Shown in pieces: positions 3,150 through 39,050 of a stretch of 64,000 bases of DNA. Made by a program: the position numbers and the translations under genes. Positions within the stretch are counted from its first letter, which is position 1; every line of letters begins with the position of its first letter. Under the pieces are notes generated by a model. The model was not told the DNA's origin. It ran no database searches and saw nothing but the letters and a program-made list of their open reading frames with translations. The stretch lies in the sequence record NC_014467.1; one strand, written 5' to 3'. The stretch is from Escherichia phage RB16.

Positions 3150-3159
3150 TGTTTATATC

Positions 3160-3393
3160 TCACTTGTTGAAAATAATGTTTTCGCATGAATATTTTGTCG
3201 GTTTCTTGTCGATACCGTATTCAAGCGGTGTACACATACGATCCATATAATCGTAAATTTCTTGTTTGCGTTTTTCGTCCTTTTTCATTTCAAGGATACC
3301 AAAAACGATAGCAGTCACAAAACACATAGCGATAGTTGAAAGAATAACGATAGCTACGTATTTTGATGTGTTTGGTGCGCTGCATGGTCTCAT
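3160..3393 (-). CDS. small membrane protein (rIIA.1 position)
   Basis: 77 aa; hydrophobic segment YVAIVILSTIAMCFVTAIVFGIL; tightly packed upstream of rIIA. Confidence 0.45.
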   Translation of the reverse strand: MRPCSAPNTSKYVAIVILSTIAMCFVTAIVFGILEMKKDEKRKQEIYDYMDRMCTPLEYGIDKKPTKYSCENIIFNK

Positions 3394-3932
3394 TGTAACA
3401 CCTTCGCAAATTCCTGTGAAGTCAGTTTACGGGCAACTAAACGCCCTTTTGTTGATGCTTTATGGCCTACCATATACATCGTGGAAATGTTGCGTTTTCC
3501 TGATTGGATTTCATTATACATCTTTTCCGGCATGGTTGATTGATAAACTTCACCGTTTGATGTTTTCAGGAACATAGCATAAACATGGTCATCTTTCTTT
3601 TCGATGATTTCTTTTTCACGAACACGAACCTTAGACGATGTTGGTTTAGCACCCAATTCAATAGCCTTTCTTTGCCATACAGGTCCGTGTCCAGCACCAT
3701 AACCAACAAGGGCATGTGCGATTTCGTGCATAAGAGTATCCAAAATACAATCGTAGGTATCTTCTTCAACATGTTTCCGGCGTAACTGGATCTCTCTTTT
3801 GGAGTAACTGCAACAACCCAGAGTACGCTTGAAACGTCCGTTGATTTTGAAAGACCAATGAGATAAGCCATGCTTCGCCATGATGCTTTTGGCCCAAATG
3901 GTTATTTCCATATCGCTACGAGTTTTGAACAT
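3390..3932 (-). CDS. SprT-like zinc metalloprotease domain protein
   Basis: 180 aa; HEIAH (HExxH) motif with SprT-like N-terminal region; 4-nt overlap with downstream gene. Confidence 0.6.
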   Translation of the reverse strand: MFKTRSDMEITIWAKSIMAKHGLSHWSFKINGRFKRTLGCCSYSKREIQLRRKHVEEDTYDCILDTLMHEIAHALVGYGAGHGPVWQRKAIELGAKPTSSKVRVREKEIIEKKDDHVYAMFLKTSNGEVYQSTMPEKMYNEIQSGKRNISTMYMVGHKASTKGRLVARKLTSQEFAKVLQ

Positions 3933-3988: not shown

Positions 3989-4004
3989 GAGGCTTTTTGT
4001 AAAT

Positions 4005-5294
4005 TTATTTCAATTTCTTCGAAAGTTCTTTCAAATCATTGAGATATTCAGTTTTCGGGGTCGTTTCTTCCCAGTATTTCAGTTGCTTACGCAGTTCATT
4101 CGCTTCGTCTTCCAGCTTTTGACGTTCATCCGTGGTTAAATGGTAGATGTTCATCGCAACCAGGATTTCGGCGTGGTTCTCGCAACCCGCCCACGTAGAG
4201 ACAAGTTTAACCGCTTCGCTGCGACTAAGCCCCTTCAATGCGTCAGGCTGTGCGATCATCTGGTCGATGAAGTCAACCTTCGCCAGCGCTTTATCTAACG
4301 CTTCCTTAGTCTCCTGGATGCGTTTATCAATACGCTGTTGGTAAACACCAATACGGATATCAACGAAGTCTTTCAGCAACGTTTCAGGCCGCTCGTATGA
4401 ATGCAGTTTCCCGTTAAAGATAACGTTGATGTTCGGGTTTGAGTTCTCAATCAATCCGAAATCTTTCAGGATCTTCTCACGGGTAAGCCCGTTTGCGTAC
4501 TCACGTTTCAGGGTGATTTCGTAGCGGAAATCTTCTTTCGATAGATCCTTATAGCTTACGATATACCCTTTCTCTTCCAGCTTATCCAGAATAGAAATAT
4601 ATTTCACGCGATCATACTTGACCGGAATCTCTGTGATCACCAGTTTGGTTTTACCCTGGAGTTCGTACTTGCCGTACATCGTACCGTTTTCAATGTCACC
4701 TTTGAAATGCGGGTATTTCAGATCCAGCGTGAAATCTTTCCCGTTCAGGTAACTAACGCATCCATTCAGAACCGATACCGGATCATGTGGTGGAATGTTG
4801 GTAGCGTATGCTTTCGCGATCCCGCTGAACCCGTTAACCAATACCATCGGAATGATAGGCAGATAATAGGCAGGCGGTACGTGTTCAGGGTCTTCATGCG
4901 GAAGAGTTAAATCTTCGTCCATGTAGATAGCCTTGAACAGCGGAGACAGCTTACATTTGATGTAACGCGGTGCGCCTGGCTTCTTAACCAGACGGGAACC
5001 AAAGAACCCATCACGTTCGAAAAGCGGGATGTTGTTGCACCAGTGCGCCGCCATGAGAGACAACGCTTCTTCAACGGATGTTTCCCCGTGGTGATAACCA
5101 TACATAGCAACACCGCCAGCGATAGAGGCTACTTTCTGGAAGCCTGTACCGCCTTTTGCAGCGGAATGTATGAAGAAACGGTGAACGGGTTTGAACCCGT
5201 CTACCAGGTGCGGGATCGCACGAGAATAAATTGTGTAAAGGGCAAACGTAAGCCCTTCAACCTGCACAACGTCTTTAATACTTCGTTCCATCAA
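4005..5294 (-). CDS. 52: DNA topoisomerase II medium subunit (GyrA-like, gp52)
   Basis: 429 aa; GyrA N-terminal-like sequence; size matches T4 gp52 (442 aa); adjacent to gp39. Confidence 0.8.
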   Translation of the reverse strand: MMERSIKDVVQVEGLTFALYTIYSRAIPHLVDGFKPVHRFFIHSAAKGGTGFQKVASIAGGVAMYGYHHGETSVEEALSLMAAHWCNNIPLFERDGFFGSRLVKKPGAPRYIKCKLSPLFKAIYMDEDLTLPHEDPEHVPPAYYLPIIPMVLVNGFSGIAKAYATNIPPHDPVSVLNGCVSYLNGKDFTLDLKYPHFKGDIENGTMYGKYELQGKTKLVITEIPVKYDRVKYISILDKLEEKGYIVSYKDLSKEDFRYEITLKREYANGLTREKILKDFGLIENSNPNINVIFNGKLHSYERPETLLKDFVDIRIGVYQQRIDKRIQETKEALDKALAKVDFIDQMIAQPDALKGLSRSEAVKLVSTWAGCENHAEILVAMNIYHLTTDERQKLEDEANELRKQLKYWEETTPKTEYLNDLKELSKKLK

Positions 5295-33523: not shown

Positions 33524-33797
33524 CAGATATGAAAAATATTTCGGTGAGAACCCCCGATATTCTCACCTGTTGCGTATGCTGGGAATGAAACATATCATTG
33601 CCACTTCTGACGAAGCAGGGGAAACCAGCGCAGTTTGTTTGACCATCATGAAGGGTGCATGGCATTCATCACGAACATGGTCAATCTTCATGCTTGATAC
33701 ACTGGACGACGATACGCTATCATATACTATTGATTCATCGGTTGTTCAATTGATCACTGAATTATGTGAACGGATTTTAAATGAAACTAAAAACTAA
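33516..33797 (+). CDS. hypothetical protein (GTG start)
   Basis: 93 aa track ORF beginning on GTG; may be a remnant next to the homing endonuclease insertion. Confidence 0.25.
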   Translation: MHSRYEKYFGENPRYSHLLRMLGMKHIIATSDEAGETSAVCLTIMKGAWHSSRTWSIFMLDTLDDDTLSYTIDSSVVQLITELCERILNETKN

Positions 33798-34311
33798 ATC
33801 ACATGGAGGTGGAAACCGAACAATTGATGATGAAATTTCTTCAATAAATGAACTACTTCCTATGTTGGATGTTGATGTTGTATTAGGAAAGATATACTGG
33901 AAAAACTCACCTCGTAAGAGCGTCCCTGCTGGAACTGAAGCAGGGAGTAAGACAAAACATGGTTACGTTGCTATCGGGTATAAAAAGACGTATTATAGAC
34001 GACATCGAATAATATTTTACGTCGCTAATGGTTATCTTCCTCTCGTAGTAGATCACAAACACGGTGTTGAATCTGGTGATGGAATAGATAACCTGCAAGA
34101 CATCACGCAACAACAAAACTCCGTTAAAATGAGAATGAGTAGAAGGAATTCTTCTGGGTTTAGAGGGGTTTCCTTTCACCAAAAATCAGGAAAATGGCAA
34201 TCATGTATTGTGTATAATAGAAAAACAATATATCTTGGTTTGTATGAAACACCAGAACTTGCACATAGTGCATATACAGACAAGCGAAAAGAATTATTTG
34301 GTGAAATATGA
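33781..34311 (+). CDS. HNH-AP2 homing endonuclease (Mob-like)
   Basis: 176 aa; HNH_3-type core YLPLVVDHKHGVESGDGIDNL and AP2-type DNA-binding region GVSFHQKSGKWQSCI...YLGLYETPELAHSAY; inserted between gp47 and gp46. Confidence 0.7.
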   Translation: MKLKTKSHGGGNRTIDDEISSINELLPMLDVDVVLGKIYWKNSPRKSVPAGTEAGSKTKHGYVAIGYKKTYYRRHRIIFYVANGYLPLVVDHKHGVESGDGIDNLQDITQQQNSVKMRMSRRNSSGFRGVSFHQKSGKWQSCIVYNRKTIYLGLYETPELAHSAYTDKRKELFGEI

Positions 34312-36005
34312 AATTAAATTTCCGTAAAATTAAGTATCAAAACATCTTATCAGTGGGTAATACCCCGATCGAACTTGAATTCGATACTGCAAAGAAAACC
34401 CTGATCACGGGTAAAAATGGTGGTGGTAAATCCACACTGATCGAAGCGTTGACGTATGCTCTTTTTGGTAAATCATTTCGTGATTTAAAAGTCGGGCAAC
34501 TGGTAAACAGTGTCAACAAAAAGAAATGTCTGGTTGAACTGGATATTGAATACGGGAAAGATTCGTACAAAGTCGTTCGCGGACAAAAGCCGAAAGTATT
34601 CGAGATCTGGAAAAACGGTGATAAGTTAGCAGAAGATTCAGCAGCGGGTGATTATCAATCTCAGCTTGAATCCATGCTCAATATTAACCTGGTTGGATTC
34701 AAACAGGTAATCGTGTTGGGTACTGCTGGCTATACTCCATTCATGGAACTGAAAACACCGGATCGCCGTAAACTGGTTGAAGACCTGTTGTCGCTATCGG
34801 TTATCAGTGAAATGGATAAGCTGAACAAATCATATGTCCGTGGTGTTAATCAGCAGTTGGATACCCTGTCAATGCAGGTTAACCACATCCAGCAGCAGAT
34901 CGCTACACACCAGCGCTTCATTGATGAACAGCGAGCTAAAGCGAACCAGAACAACGCACGATACAAAGAGATCTACGATAGCCACGTTGAAACCGCTAAG
35001 AACATCAAAGCACAGCTTATGCAGTTGCAAGCGGAGATCGCAGAAACGGTGATCACTGGTGCAGACCGAACGGAAGATATAAACAAACTCCGTGATGGCT
35101 ATACGCGCCTCTCTATGACTGTAGAACAGTTTAAAAAGCTGGAAGTGATGTATCAGAAAGGTGGTGAGTGTCCGGCCTGTAAACAGGCGATTAAGCCCAC
35201 TCCTGAACGCATGGAAGAGATCGCAAACAACATCAAAGCGGGTACGCAACGATTAACGCTGATCAAAACCAAACAGGACGAGTTGCAAGGCATTATGAAC
35301 GAGTTGCTTCAACAGCAACGCGCACTGAATGCTATGAAAACGAAATACGAAGCCCTGAAAGGTACGCTGCAAAATGAAGTTGCCAACGCTAAACGCGCAC
35401 AAGCGATCATGGAACAGGCAAGCGCGGAAGTTGTTATTGATGAAGAACCTGTTAAGCAGTTACAACAACAGGAAGCAGATCTGAACGATAAACGTCAAGG
35501 ATATGTGAAAGAAAAATATATCCGTGGTATCGTTACAGATATGTTAAAAGATTCTGGTGTAAAAGCCAGCATCGTAAAACGTTATATCCCGTACTTCAAC
35601 AAGCAGATCGCATACTATCTGGATCTGTTGGGCGCTGACTACCAGTTCACTTTAGATGATGAATTCAACGAATCAATCAAATCACTGGGGCGCGATGATT
35701 TTAGTTACGCATCATTTAGCCAGGGTGAACGCGCACGAATCAACCTTGCGTTGCTTATGACCTGGCGTGATGTAACAAGTAAAGTTTCTGGTGTTGATTT
35801 ATCGCTTCTGGTACTAGATGAAATCTTTGATGGTGCAATGGATAAAGAAGGTGGATTTGCAGTCAGAGCATTACTGGATGATATTGAAGGTAATGTTATT
35901 GTAATCAGTCATCAGGATTTAGATCCACAAGAATTTCATCGACATATTGTTATGTCTAAAGTAGGGAGATTCACCAAATGCAAGATAGTAAACAATGATT
36001 ACTAA
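34308..36005 (+). CDS. 46: recombination endonuclease subunit (gp46, Rad50/SbcC-like ATPase)
   Basis: 565 aa; Walker A GKNGGGKST; coiled coil with zinc hook CPACK; Walker B/D-loop LLVLDE. Confidence 0.85.
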   Translation: MKLNFRKIKYQNILSVGNTPIELEFDTAKKTLITGKNGGGKSTLIEALTYALFGKSFRDLKVGQLVNSVNKKKCLVELDIEYGKDSYKVVRGQKPKVFEIWKNGDKLAEDSAAGDYQSQLESMLNINLVGFKQVIVLGTAGYTPFMELKTPDRRKLVEDLLSLSVISEMDKLNKSYVRGVNQQLDTLSMQVNHIQQQIATHQRFIDEQRAKANQNNARYKEIYDSHVETAKNIKAQLMQLQAEIAETVITGADRTEDINKLRDGYTRLSMTVEQFKKLEVMYQKGGECPACKQAIKPTPERMEEIANNIKAGTQRLTLIKTKQDELQGIMNELLQQQRALNAMKTKYEALKGTLQNEVANAKRAQAIMEQASAEVVIDEEPVKQLQQQEADLNDKRQGYVKEKYIRGIVTDMLKDSGVKASIVKRYIPYFNKQIAYYLDLLGADYQFTLDDEFNESIKSLGRDDFSYASFSQGERARINLALLMTWRDVTSKVSGVDLSLLVLDEIFDGAMDKEGGFAVRALLDDIEGNVIVISHQDLDPQEFHRHIVMSKVGRFTKCKIVNNDY

Positions 36006-36570
36006 AAACTGGGACGACGAATTTCAAGCCGAGATTCGTCGTCGGTTTTACCATGTAAACGGGGTTTTGTATCACAAGACGGAGAGTAAACAAACTGCTT
36101 TTTCTCCGGCGGGATACTATTTCAAACCTGGTGATATGGTGAAATGTCACAAAACTAGGAAAAAGACTCCATATTTACAGATTTGTATGCGATATGAAGG
36201 GAAGTCTAACTATCTATACGTACATAGGGTTGTGTGGTTTCTTGAATATGGGTATCAGGTTGATACGATCGACCATATCGATCTAAATCCTTTAAATAAT
36301 GATCCATCGAATCTTAGAGAAGCAAGCACACAGCAGAACCATTACAACAAAAATGGAAAACCTAACACTTCCTCCACTTACAAGGGTGTATCATGGGATA
36401 AATCAACTTGCAAATGGAAAGTGGGTATTCAGCATAATAAGAAAAAGATTCATTTAGGATATTTTGATGATGAAGTCGAAGCGGCTAAGGCATACGATGC
36501 AAAGGCAATTGAAATTGGTGGACAATATGCGAGGTTAAACTTCCATGATTATGTTAGAACGAGAATTTGA
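35995..36570 (+). CDS. HNH-AP2 homing endonuclease (Mob-like)
   Basis: 191 aa; HRVVW...IDHIDLNPLNNDPSNLR HNH_3 motif and AP2-like KGVSWDKSTCKWKVGI...LGYFDDEVEAAKAY. Confidence 0.7.
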   Translation: MITKNWDDEFQAEIRRRFYHVNGVLYHKTESKQTAFSPAGYYFKPGDMVKCHKTRKKTPYLQICMRYEGKSNYLYVHRVVWFLEYGYQVDTIDHIDLNPLNNDPSNLREASTQQNHYNKNGKPNTSSTYKGVSWDKSTCKWKVGIQHNKKKIHLGYFDDEVEAAKAYDAKAIEIGGQYARLNFHDYVRTRI

Positions 36571-36742
36571 ATTGATGACCTCTCCAGAAGCGGAGAGGTT
36601 TTATCTTCATAACGAACTGTTGGAAGAAAAACACGTTGTCTCTATGGAAGATGTCAAAGAAGCCTTTAAAGACAATCAGTTAGAGCTAACGCGAATACTG
36701 AATAATAAATCGTCTATGTGGTTTCTCGAAAAAATCTATTGA
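36545..36742 (+). CDS. hypothetical small protein
   Basis: 65 aa ORF overlapping the end of the endonuclease gene; weak. Confidence 0.25.
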   Translation: MIMLEREFELMTSPEAERFYLHNELLEEKHVVSMEDVKEAFKDNQLELTRILNNKSSMWFLEKIY

Positions 36743-36767
36743 CATCAGAACATAAATACCTTAAAGT

Positions 36768-36800
36768 TGCCCGTGTACTGAGATGCACGGGCTTTTATTT
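36768..36800 (+). terminator. rho-independent terminator (GCCCGTG...CACGGGC + TTTTATTTT)
   Basis: Perfect 7-bp GC stem followed by T-run. Confidence 0.6.
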
Positions 36801-36813
36801 TGAGGAACGGAAA

Positions 36814-38511
36814 ATGATTAACGAAAAAATGACACACCGCGAAGCGTTGGAAATCTTAGGGGCCACGGGTACTGAATCCAAAGCTGAAATGTCCAAACTC
36901 TTCAAACGTGCTTCTCTGCGTAATCACCCCGATCGTGGTGGTAGCACAGAACTCATGCAAAAAATTAACCAGGCATATGACGTAGTAACGAGAACAAACA
37001 GTTCTGGTGAAACTATGATGGATATGCGAGCGCGTCACGCAGCGAATAAAAAAGCGTGGGAAGAAAAACTGGATGCGTATTTTGTTGTTGCTAAGAACTA
37101 TTTCAGCACGAAATTTAACGCACAGGAATTCGCTGAATACTTCACCAAATACACCGGACAGCCGACGACCTTCACACAGGTAGTCAAGAAAGATACAATT
37201 TCCGTATCTGCTGTGTTCCGTTTCACTTCTGGTGATGCTCACTTTGATTTCGCTTTCTACTGCAAGCCAGAAGAAGGTAAAGGTTTGATGTCTCCTGATG
37301 CAAGCGCATTGGGTAGTGTTTCTGTCAATACTCTGGTACTGGTTGGAACCAAAAAACATAAAATGGCAAGCCGTGAATATCAATGGGGCAAAAACCCAGA
37401 TAAGATCACACCGGAAAGCCTGTTCCCGTCCAAGAAACTTGCATCAATTTTCAGCCCGACACAAAAGAACCTCAAGTTCAAACGTGCTGACTATATGACT
37501 TCTTTCCGCAAGCACTTAGACGCAGAAATCAGCGGCAATGATATCTATGTTCCTGTAGGCGACCTGAAAGTTCGTTTCTATCGTCATGTAATGATGCGTA
37601 AAGGTGCGTATGTGTTTAGTGCGGTATACGACCCAGCGGTAAGTAAATTCCGTTCTGCTGCAAACCTTCGCGGTACTATGTTTGAAGACGAAGACGGCGC
37701 ATGTTTGGATATGATTATCGACACTTTCAAAGAAATGCAGAAAGCAAAACCGAACGTTAACGGTATTGTCAGTATCATTGACAAGATGAACGCAGAATTC
37801 GCAGCGGGACACCGTTCAGCATCTTTCGTCAAACGTATGGCACAGCAAGCAGCAGCACCGAAGCCGGAAGAAAAGCCGAAACGCACTGTTAACCGTATCA
37901 GCAAAGATGATTATTTCAACGCATTGAAACAAGCGGGTGCAACATTCCGTAGCAACTACGGTGAGTTTGATAACGGCGCTGGATTGACGTTCCACTTCAA
38001 ACGCGAGATCAGCAACCGTAAAGGCTTCTGGAGTTTCAGCAGTTTTAATTTCATGCACTCCGGTCAAAGTCATGTTGAATGGTTGAAAGATATCGACATT
38101 GACGAAGACAGCAAAGGTGCAAGTATCGGTCTGATGGTTGATACTCTGAAACAGTTGCGTGGTGTTGCTGATTGGTATACTGCAAGAAAGATCCTGGAAG
38201 CGATGCGCGATAACTTCAAAGCTGGTAAGTTCTCCGCACCACACGTTAAGAAAGAAGCCGAACAGAAACGCACTGAGGCGCAAGCTAAGGACGAGTTAGG
38301 CGCACAGCCTACCAAACCCCAGGGAGCGAAGAAAGAAGCCCCAGCAGTTGATAAGGCTCACGAGGCACAGATGGATCGTGAGAAGTCACAGATGAATGCA
38401 ACCATTCGTTCTATGCTCTCTGCCCTGGTTAAAGCCGGACGCAAAGACACGCCGGAAGAAATTAAAAAAGCAGTCGATGAAGCAATCGCTCTTTGGCGCT
38501 TGAAACACTAA
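36814..38511 (+). CDS. J-domain (DnaJ-like) protein, about 566 aa
   Basis: Start placed at MINEKMTHREALEILG (RBS GAGGAA); canonical J-domain with HPD motif (LRNHPDRGGSTELMQKINQAYDVV); the remaining ~490 aa have no recognised domain. Confidence 0.6.
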   Translation: MINEKMTHREALEILGATGTESKAEMSKLFKRASLRNHPDRGGSTELMQKINQAYDVVTRTNSSGETMMDMRARHAANKKAWEEKLDAYFVVAKNYFSTKFNAQEFAEYFTKYTGQPTTFTQVVKKDTISVSAVFRFTSGDAHFDFAFYCKPEEGKGLMSPDASALGSVSVNTLVLVGTKKHKMASREYQWGKNPDKITPESLFPSKKLASIFSPTQKNLKFKRADYMTSFRKHLDAEISGNDIYVPVGDLKVRFYRHVMMRKGAYVFSAVYDPAVSKFRSAANLRGTMFEDEDGACLDMIIDTFKEMQKAKPNVNGIVSIIDKMNAEFAAGHRSASFVKRMAQQAAAPKPEEKPKRTVNRISKDDYFNALKQAGATFRSNYGEFDNGAGLTFHFKREISNRKGFWSFSSFNFMHSGQSHVEWLKDIDIDEDSKGASIGLMVDTLKQLRGVADWYTARKILEAMRDNFKAGKFSAPHVKKEAEQKRTEAQAKDELGAQPTKPQGAKKEAPAVDKAHEAQMDREKSQMNATIRSMLSALVKAGRKDTPEEIKKAVDEAIALWRLKH

Positions 38512-38527
38512 CTGGTTATGCTATAAT
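38500..38527 (+). promoter_or_regulatory. sigma70-like promoter with extended -10: TTGAAA, 16-bp spacer, TGcTATAAT, overlapping the terminator hairpin 38528-38557
   Basis: Near-consensus hexamers; hairpin GGGAACTG...CAGTTCCC + TTTTTT directly downstream. Confidence 0.5.
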
Positions 38528-38568
38528 GGGAACTGTTGAAAAGCAGTTCCCTTTTTTATGAGGTGAGT

Positions 38569-38796
38569 ATGATTATTCAGGTATCGGTTCAGGGCAATAC
38601 CCTGACAGTAACAAATTCCATTATGACCGCTATGGCTGCATGTCGTGATCATGTCATGTCAAACCCTCCGGTAACGGAAATTCTGGAAATTGATGTATGG
38701 GAAGATGGTGTGATCGAAGAATCCTTTGGTTTCACTCCGTTAGAGGAAGATTTACGCAAAATGGAACAATGGCTATGGCAAACTGTACCCCAATGA
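38569..38796 (+). CDS. hypothetical protein
   Basis: Start placed at MIIQVSVQ (RBS GAGGTGAG). Confidence 0.4.
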   Translation: MIIQVSVQGNTLTVTNSIMTAMAACRDHVMSNPPVTEILEIDVWEDGVIEESFGFTPLEEDLRKMEQWLWQTVPQ

Positions 38797-39050
38797 AACT
38801 ACCAAAACACACAACCCTGTTAACCCGCGAAAAACTTCATTCTGTTGAATGGAGTCCGTTAGATGTGATGGTGTTCGATCTGGAATCCAAAATCATTAAC
38901 GCTCATGTTAACGGATTGAGTATCTTTTCTGTTGAATTTGAAAAGATTCGCGGGTACAATGAAGCCTGTAAAGACAAATTGCGCGTCATGGTTGAAGCTA
39001 TGGGCTACATCGTGACTATTGAAGACAACAAAATGTGGATCGCGCTATGA
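38793..39050 (+). CDS. hypothetical protein
   Basis: Start placed at MKLPKHTT; ATGA coupling on both sides. Confidence 0.4.
   Translation: MKLPKHTTLLTREKLHSVEWSPLDVMVFDLESKIINAHVNGLSIFSVEFEKIRGYNEACKDKLRVMVEAMGYIVTIEDNKMWIAL

Follow-up and report, generated by a model that had tools for sequence, protein, structure and literature searches.

Phages of the RB43 group of T4-like phages encode the closest described relatives of the gene examined here, which occupies positions 36,814 to 38,511 of a 64,000-nt stretch of the Escherichia phage RB16 genome (NC_014467.1; this whole stretch is referred to below as the window). In RB43, Perrody et al. (2012, PLoS Genet 8:e1003037, PMC3486835) named the open reading frame (ORF) ORF057w rki, for RB43 DnaK interactor, and showed that the J-domain of its product functionally replaces that of DnaJ in a chimera, a replacement abolished by the H38Q substitution. 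Rki binds DnaK in vivo in pull-downs and stimulates its ATPase activity (with H38Q as the negative control), and its toxicity requires DnaK and is worse in the absence of DnaJ (PMC3486835). The protein is monomeric, has a diverged helix IV region and acts neither as a generic co-chaperone nor as a holdase; it fails to refold luciferase or to prevent its aggregation, and does not bind the denatured enzyme (PMC3486835). The rki transcript was detected by northern blot 5–8 min post infection, with early promoter boxes TTGACA and TAAAGT, and deletion of the gene (delta-rki) impairs growth of RB43 in a host-strain-dependent manner, most strongly at 14 °C and on MC4100 (PMC3486835). Rki stabilises sigma32 and raises the heat-shock proteins, and sigma32 co-precipitates with it only with DnaK present; the delta-rki defect is fully rescued by plasmid-borne sigma32 and weakly by over-expression of GroESL (PMC3486835).

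In RB16, Glu238 takes the place of the RB43 stop codon and yields a 565-aa fusion, named Rki16, which was seen at full length by western blot in RB16-infected cells (PMC3486835). Expressed from a plasmid, Rki16 stabilises sigma32 and complements delta-rki phage RB43 “considerably less efficiently” than Rki, and is much less toxic than the truncated Rki; co-expression of ORF058w in trans has no effect on Rki (PMC3486835). T4 lacks rki (PMC3486835), which agrees with the remark in a sequence-only reading of this stretch that no J-domain protein (JDP) is known in T4 itself. In a 2026 review Rki still stands as the phage JDP that has been characterised, with no further domain known, and we found no follow-up study of Rki in the literature.

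The gene in the window is rki16, the uninterrupted 565-aa allele of rki in the RB43-group T4-like phages (Pseudotevenvirus). Its frame opens with an ATG at 36814 and runs for 565 codons to a TAA stop at 38509-38511 on the + strand, and exact-sequence look-up showed the product to be identical over all residues to RB16p058 / UniProt D9ICB9, the accession given for Rki16 by Perrody et al. (2012, PMC3486835). The family profile phrog_7739 matches residues 1-565 of 565 (E = 0), and tblastn against phage genomes found the protein in 203 records, the best being Lw1 (98.8%) and RB43 (98.6%), both Pseudotevenvirus; between Rki16 and the RB43 sequence, 8 of 565 positions differ, including the stop at 238. 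The ORF proposed by the sequence-only reading is thus real, having an ATG, a GAGGAA Shine-Dalgarno sequence and an exact database match. A longer, GTG-started frame (36718) was rejected: it starts upstream of a terminator hairpin, and the homologues all begin MINE or MITE, so none supports an extra N-terminus. The placement between gp46 and frd was also right, the order in the window being 47, 46, 45.2, rki16, small ORFs, frd, td and nrdA, with synteny kept in RB43 and Lw1. The 2012 publication already described the gene with its J-domain, the activity on DnaK and sigma32, and even the fused form of 565 aa. As a discovery this therefore carries limited weight, given that the publication covers the gene and its activity and the 2026 review still cites it; what is new here is the architecture of the uncharacterised part of the protein, and the recognition of the model protein as a truncated allele.

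The N-terminal J-domain is supported by several lines of evidence. The peptide quoted in the sequence-only reading, LRNHPDRGGSTELMQKINQAYDVV, is present, and its HPD tripeptide (residues 38-40, nt 36925-36933) sits in the loop joining helices II and III. As a single sequence, Rki16 scores just below the gathering score of Pfam DnaJ (PF00226; E 1.9e-5, 25.1 bits vs 27.8), which many of its homologues do clear. A family profile built from 20 homologues matched the E. coli DnaJ J-domain in PDB (5nro_B, E 1.1e-8) along with about fifty other J-domains and nothing else, all matches being confined to residues ~5-86, and Foldseek searches with the AlphaFold model returned the J-domains of Tim14, Sis1 and dnj-12 with probability 1.0. 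In an alignment of 141 homologues H38 and D40 are invariant and P39 is at least 90% conserved. No G/F-rich region, zinc-finger or DnaJ C-terminal domain accompanies the J-domain, which places Rki16 in class C (type III); Pfam on the full protein returns the J-domain alone, and the NCBIfam DnaJ equivalog models reach 17-18 bits on it against cut-offs of 338-392. The assignment of the HPD region to a J-domain thus withstood the profile search that might have overturned it, and agrees with the experiments on RB43 Rki, which is identical at 236 of the first 237 residues.

The same reading saw no motif in the ~490 residues that follow. This stands insofar as Pfam and PDB give nothing outside the J-domain, but an internal architecture is recognisable. 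Based on the 141-sequence alignment, the AlphaFold2 model of full-length Rki16 has a mean predicted local distance difference test (pLDDT) score of 89.9. A long helix connects the J-domain to a family-specific middle domain (aa 100-217), modelled as a helix, a six-stranded antiparallel sheet and two short helices, which carries a conserved LFPxxKL motif (aa 203-209) and the near-invariant residues L158, K183, P200, F204, P205 and K208 (141 homologues). The remaining ~330 residues are two tandem alpha/beta modules of ~130 aa, followed by a disordered linker and a helical hairpin. In unit 1, a helix that bears the KRADY motif (223-227) is followed by a beta-meander and three helices, and the unit holds the invariant R257; in the model, unit 2 shows the same order of elements. 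Residues ~220-350 and ~360-489 represent a tandem duplication, as found by hhalign (99.4% probability, E 2.6e-21, 128 columns), by hhalign with the deep core-family profile (98.8%, E 1e-16) and by pairwise blastp (E 8e-8), and neither a repeat nor a duplication is mentioned in PMC3486835. Modelled separately, residues 100-352 reached a pLDDT of 92.9 and a predicted template modelling (pTM) score of 0.88, and the middle domain and unit 1 therefore pack as one body in the model. Tried as a diverged third copy of the repeat, the middle domain gave no hhalign signal (E 0.07-0.17), its order of secondary structure being nonetheless similar.

As modelled, the ~130-aa module has no close solved relative and is placed in no known structural family. 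Pfam searches of 43 cropped homologues gave nothing consistent outside the J-domain; weak matches to DUF6282, GUCT, DNA_pol3_beta_2 and others each occurred in a single member and were treated as noise. Foldseek of the full model against PDB returned nothing credible beyond the J-domain, and in a structure search of BFVD the sole matches were members of the family itself. Foldseek matches to PUR-repeat/MRP (Whirly-like) proteins, the Plk4 polo-box, Mediator and CapZ were dismissed (E>0.01, template modelling score <0.3). The Whirly-like match had invited a nucleic-acid-binding reading, which was dropped, and membership in CapZ was rejected as a loose resemblance of shape (E 0.36-0.54). Structure prediction and profile search beyond the J-domain, both of which the sequence-only reading had recommended, thus yielded folded modules in the model and J-domains as the only matches in PDB.

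To delimit the family, we searched 1.84 billion representatives exhaustively with HMMER, and found 568 clusters with E<=1e-3, of which 228 have E<=1e-10, the latter being far more than the four homologues known in 2012. Proteins of 330-370 aa make up nearly all of these clusters, and their alignments span residues ~2-330, i.e., the J-domain, the middle domain and one unit. Conserved positions outside the J-domain (141 homologues) are L158, K183, P200, F204, P205, K208, D226 and E293, together with the invariant R257. Where visible, the neighbourhoods of core-family members are T4-like, with PhoH, endonuclease VII and DNA ligase beside homologue P0024, and gp3 and a dNMP kinase next to the Aeromonas phage homologues. 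A metagenomic contig, SRR25375751_97087, keeps the whole gene order of the window (47, 46, 45.2, JDP, three small ORFs, frd, td, nrdA), and its JDP (4001-5050) has 349 aa and a single repeat unit, without unit 2 and the tail. Because this fully syntenic homologue has neither, unit 2 and the tail are probably a lineage-specific extension, and the conserved core of the family would be ~340 aa, including one module. Judging from the same 349-aa JDP, the difference could reflect lineage-specific extension or loss. In Pseudotevenvirus, Slopekvirus and their relatives, the norm is the long form of 561-573 aa. The C-terminal modules are conserved over 35-93% identity and well folded in the model.

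Besides these stand-alone proteins, an Rki-like J-domain plus middle module is found inside the giant polyvalent proteins P0063 and P0173 (1442 and 1931 aa), whose partner domains are 2'-5' RNA ligase, SprT-like, ART-PolyVal and DUF3990, and in P0156 (639 aa) an Rki-like module is fused to an AAA_33 / Zeta-toxin-like kinase. Judged from domain composition, the polyvalent fusions point to a possible role of the Rki-like module as an early host-manipulation effector. Polyvalent proteins have reportedly been regarded as early anti-host effectors in work by Iyer and Aravind.

RB43 has two annotated genes at this locus, ORF057w, with the 237-aa product Rki (“similar to DnaJ”), and ORF058w (305 aa), and DNA alignment showed that the sole cause of the split is one G-to-T change at codon 238, which is GAA in both RB16 and Lw1. 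Over the first 237 residues, Rki16 and RB43 Rki differ only by V123E. The RB43 stop falls inside unit 1, 11 codons past KRADY and before R257, and the annotated start of ORF058w is Met261, within a predicted beta-strand; R257 would therefore be missing from both RB43 products. This points to the well-studied Rki being the truncated allele of a protein that has a ~340-aa conserved core. The converse, that two separate genes were joined in RB16 by chance or by sequencing error, draws on the same pair of RB43 annotations, and we give it almost no credence. Among the 60 closest records the two-gene annotation occurs in the three RB43 records only, and all other close and distant relatives encode one protein of 561-573 aa; moreover, the split is due solely to the codon-238 change, the stop cuts through a repeat unit that is otherwise conserved whole, the ORF058w start lies within a strand, and the full-length protein is seen by western blot in RB16-infected cells (PMC3486835). 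Together these findings refute a fusion artefact, which the sequence-only reading had named as the finding that would undo it: the ORF does span two RB43 genes, separated by an RB43-specific GAA-to-TAA change, and a single ORF of 565-570 aa stands as the normal form among relatives.

Combining these results with the published work, we consider it very likely that rki16 encodes an early, DnaK-docking class C JDP that spares sigma32 from FtsH, with the C-terminal modules modulating this activity. In such a mechanism, rki16 would be transcribed early from its own sigma70-type promoter, and the N-terminal class C (type III) J-domain would dock on DnaK via the HPD loop and stimulate ATP hydrolysis. 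Together with the middle domain, Rki16 would then act on the DnaK-sigma32 complex rather than as a general co-chaperone, such that sigma32 is not handed to FtsH; sigma32 would build up, and the heat-shock regulon (GroEL and others) would be induced early, aiding growth especially in the cold or on some hosts. The steps from docking to heat-shock induction were shown for the 237-aa RB43 Rki, while for Rki16 itself the effect on sigma32 and the complementation were shown, both weaker (PMC3486835); the recruitment of host DnaK proposed by the sequence-only reading is thus published for Rki and accompanied by these weaker activities in Rki16. The truncated RB43 protein exceeds the full-length one in toxicity and in activity, from which we infer that the C-terminal modules attenuate the DnaK-dependent activity or direct it.

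Several points weigh against this interpretation. Perrody et al. themselves leave the biochemical route by which Rki protects sigma32 unexplained (PMC3486835), and nearly all experiments were done on the truncated RB43 allele, not on Rki16. The attenuator role leans on one published comparison by plasmid over-expression, and a lower expression or solubility of the larger Rki16 would explain its weaker effect equally well. The lack of effect of ORF058w in trans disfavours simple trans inhibition (PMC3486835), and modulation by the modules is therefore a cis effect at best. The J-domain of Rki16 taken alone lies just under the curated Pfam threshold (25.1 vs 27.8 bits), and no structural or sequence relative in PDB, Pfam, Foldseek or BFVD hints at what the repeats bind.

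Two further explanations would make the effect on sigma32 secondary. The C-terminal modules may bind a phage or host client other than sigma32 and pass it on to DnaK to be folded or remodelled, as other class C JDPs and the SV40 T antigen do, in which case sigma32 stabilisation would be a side effect of DnaK titration. That class C JDPs by definition draw their specificity from non-J regions (PMC3486835, introduction) speaks for such client delivery, as do the folding and the conservation (35-93% identity) of the modules and the fusion of Rki-like modules to other effector domains in some proteins; the weak rescue of delta-rki by GroESL also suggests that more than chaperone induction may matter. 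No client is known, however, and plasmid-borne sigma32 alone fully suppresses the delta-rki defect, the truncated Rki is fully functional in RB43 without the repeats, and Rki does not bind denatured luciferase; on balance we think client delivery unlikely. The effect on sigma32 could also be a by-product of counter-defence, Rki16 competing with DnaJ for DnaK and so blunting immune or abortive-infection systems that depend on DnaK/DnaJ. The greater toxicity of Rki without DnaJ suggests competition for DnaK, the delta-rki phenotype varies by host strain, and the polyvalent proteins that contain the Rki-like J-domain plus middle module also carry ART, SprT-like and 2'-5' RNA-ligase domains; in addition, the bNACHT25 system senses phage in a DnaJ-dependent manner, though that work used RNA phages. 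No defence system has been linked to Rki16, PADLOC models find nothing on the full protein (as expected of a phage gene), and pure counter-defence does not predict that over-expression of sigma32 alone rescues delta-rki, all of which make this explanation decidedly improbable.

Returning to the DnaK-docking, sigma32-sparing JDP, the alleles allow a more specific version of it, which we put forward tentatively and with considerable doubt: the functional unit would be the ~340-aa core, Rki a truncated, deregulated (hypermorphic) allele, and the modules a regulator or second binding site that tunes the diversion of DnaK. Rki lacks R257, the only invariant non-J residue of the family. A comparable break is found in Aeromonas phage 65, where homologue ST65p124 (244 aa; NC_015251.1 locus, about 3150-3470) has a +1 frameshift directly after KKADY, within ~10 codons of the RB43 stop position; the remainder of unit 1 can be read in another frame, where part of it is annotated as ST65p125, and the CC2 and 65.2 orthologues are intact (337 aa). 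If this version holds, the phage 65 break at almost the same point would represent loss of the module repeatedly selected during propagation. The coincidence of the two break points is suggestive, and may be due to chance or, in phage 65, to a sequencing error. Elsewhere, the gene of Klebsiella phage vB_KleM_kp20 (301-2009) is split near residue 161, in the middle domain, into ORFs of 161 and 382 aa, and KMI7 (1501-2113; an incomplete 131-kb record) retains fragments only, its gap being either a deletion or incomplete assembly; given these, a truncation hotspot is a weak lead. For those who work with Rki, the practical point is that the cited protein is a nonsense-truncated allele cut through a conserved domain, and that the normal protein contains one or two copies of a confidently modelled, structurally orphan module.

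The coordinates of the features discussed are collected in Table 1. The sequence-only reading had taken the gene to be independently regulated, with a terminator upstream and a promoter and terminator at its end. Our scan recovered the hairpin and T-run at 36769-36800, the promoter at 38500-38527 and the hairpin from 38528, and independent regulation is borne out by these promoter/terminator composites and by the published early transcript. Absent from that reading is the promoter of rki16 itself, which is immediately preceded by an A-rich, UP-like stretch, lies partly within the end of gene 45.2, and is conserved in RB43, Margaery and KP27. The 36769-36800 terminator is annotated likewise in KP27 and Margaery, and in KP27 its stem keeps pairing through a compensatory G-C to A-T change. 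At the other end, the conserved downstream promoter overlaps the last rki16 codons, and the 38528-38551 stem is invariant in four phages.

Table 1. Features of rki16 and its flanking regions (positions in the window)
Feature	Position	Strand	Basis
Early sigma70-type promoter, TTGACA-17-TAAAGT	36739..36767	+	Scan (10/12); published rki promoter boxes
Hairpin (9 bp, 6 G-C pairs, G+C-rich) and T-run, intrinsic terminator for 46/45.2 transcripts	36769..36800	+	Scan
Shine-Dalgarno sequence, GAGGAA	36802..36807	+	Read from sequence; invariant across four aligned phages
rki16 coding sequence, 565 aa and stop	36814..38511	+	Exact sequence look-up; phrog_7739 full-length match
J-domain, aa 1-70 (helices 8-15, 23-36, 45-58)	36814..37023	+	Pfam; PDB profile match; AlphaFold and Foldseek; conserved HPD
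Long connecting helix, aa 68-99	37015..37110	+	AlphaFold model, pLDDT >90
Family-specific middle domain, aa 100-217	37111..37464	+	AlphaFold models; near-invariant residues
Repeat unit 1, aa 218-352	37465..37869	+	hhalign; blastp; AlphaFold models
Codon 238, GAA (Glu) here, TAA in RB43	37525..37527	+	DNA alignment; protein differences; PMC3486835
Repeat unit 2, aa 356-495 (second tandem copy)	37879..38298	+	Repeat comparisons; AlphaFold
Disordered Lys/Glu/Ala/Pro-rich linker, aa 490-511	38281..38346	+	AlphaFold pLDDT <50
C-terminal helical hairpin, aa 514-564	38353..38505	+	AlphaFold pLDDT ~95; kept in long forms
Promoter TTGAAA-16-TATAAT, extended TG, for downstream small ORFs	38500..38527	+	Scan (11/12); KP27 annotation
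Hairpin (10 bp, 38528-38551) and T-run, rki16 transcript terminator	38528..38558	+	Scan; KP27 and Margaery annotation

At both ends of the gene the promoter directly abuts the hairpin, with gaps of 1 nt upstream and 0 nt downstream. RB43, Margaery and the Slopekvirus KP27 all retain both composites, and independent annotators marked the same terminators and promoter. From the spacing, each start site should fall within the 5' arm of the hairpin beside it. Read-through transcripts would then terminate, and those begun at the adjacent promoter would be unable to form the stem. On the + strand of the window, three promoters abut a hairpin with a gap of 0-3 nt, compared with 1.1 expected from random placement, a count that is not significant alone; it is insufficient for a genome-wide motif, which we rejected, and the two gene-flanking sites rest on conservation. 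The third such site lies at 11393-11452 (+).

The surroundings of rki16 vary among its relatives. Two homing-endonuclease-like ORFs with HNH_3 and AP2 domains flank gene 46 in the window, at 33781-34311 (176 aa) and 35995-36570 (191 aa), both on the + strand; RB43 has neither at the corresponding positions, and in Lw1 the space between 46 and 45.2 holds instead a MobE-like gene on the other strand. The small ORFs between rki16 and frd (38536-39050, +), namely 38536/38569-38796 and 38697-39050, have no Pfam match and differ from the block of three in RB43, 059w-061w (327/282/183 nt).

Compared with the described systems, the gene in the window shares all 565 residues, the locus, the promoter and the host with the published Rki16 (D9ICB9), whose description does not include the tandem repeat, the ~340-aa core family or a structural model. 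Rki of RB43 (Q56BZ1) has in common with it the J-domain, the middle domain, the early promoter and the DnaK/sigma32 pathway; it retains hardly any of unit 1, has no unit 2, no linker and no C-terminal hairpin, and reportedly surpasses the full-length form in toxicity and effectiveness. The short phage JDPs (~330-370 aa; Aeromonas CC2 and 65.2 and metagenomic T4-like contigs; phrog_13942) consist of the J-domain, the middle domain and one unit at 25-35% identity, and share the HPD, LFPxxKL and K(R/K)AD motifs, R257 and T4-like neighbourhoods, but not unit 2, the disordered linker or the C-terminal helical hairpin. Among host proteins, E. coli DnaJ, CbpA and DjlA likewise have an HPD-containing J-domain that stimulates the DnaK ATPase, and the Rki J-domain can be swapped into DnaJ, whereas Rki16 has no G/F region, zinc-finger or DnaJ C-terminal substrate-binding domain. 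The large and small T antigens of SV40 offer a viral parallel, being larger, multifunctional proteins with an N-terminal class C J-domain that redirects the host Hsp70 (a weak profile match to 1faf_A, E 3.7e-4); they differ in belonging to a eukaryotic virus, in their unrelated non-J domains, and in their clients, which are the Rb family and replication instead of sigma32.

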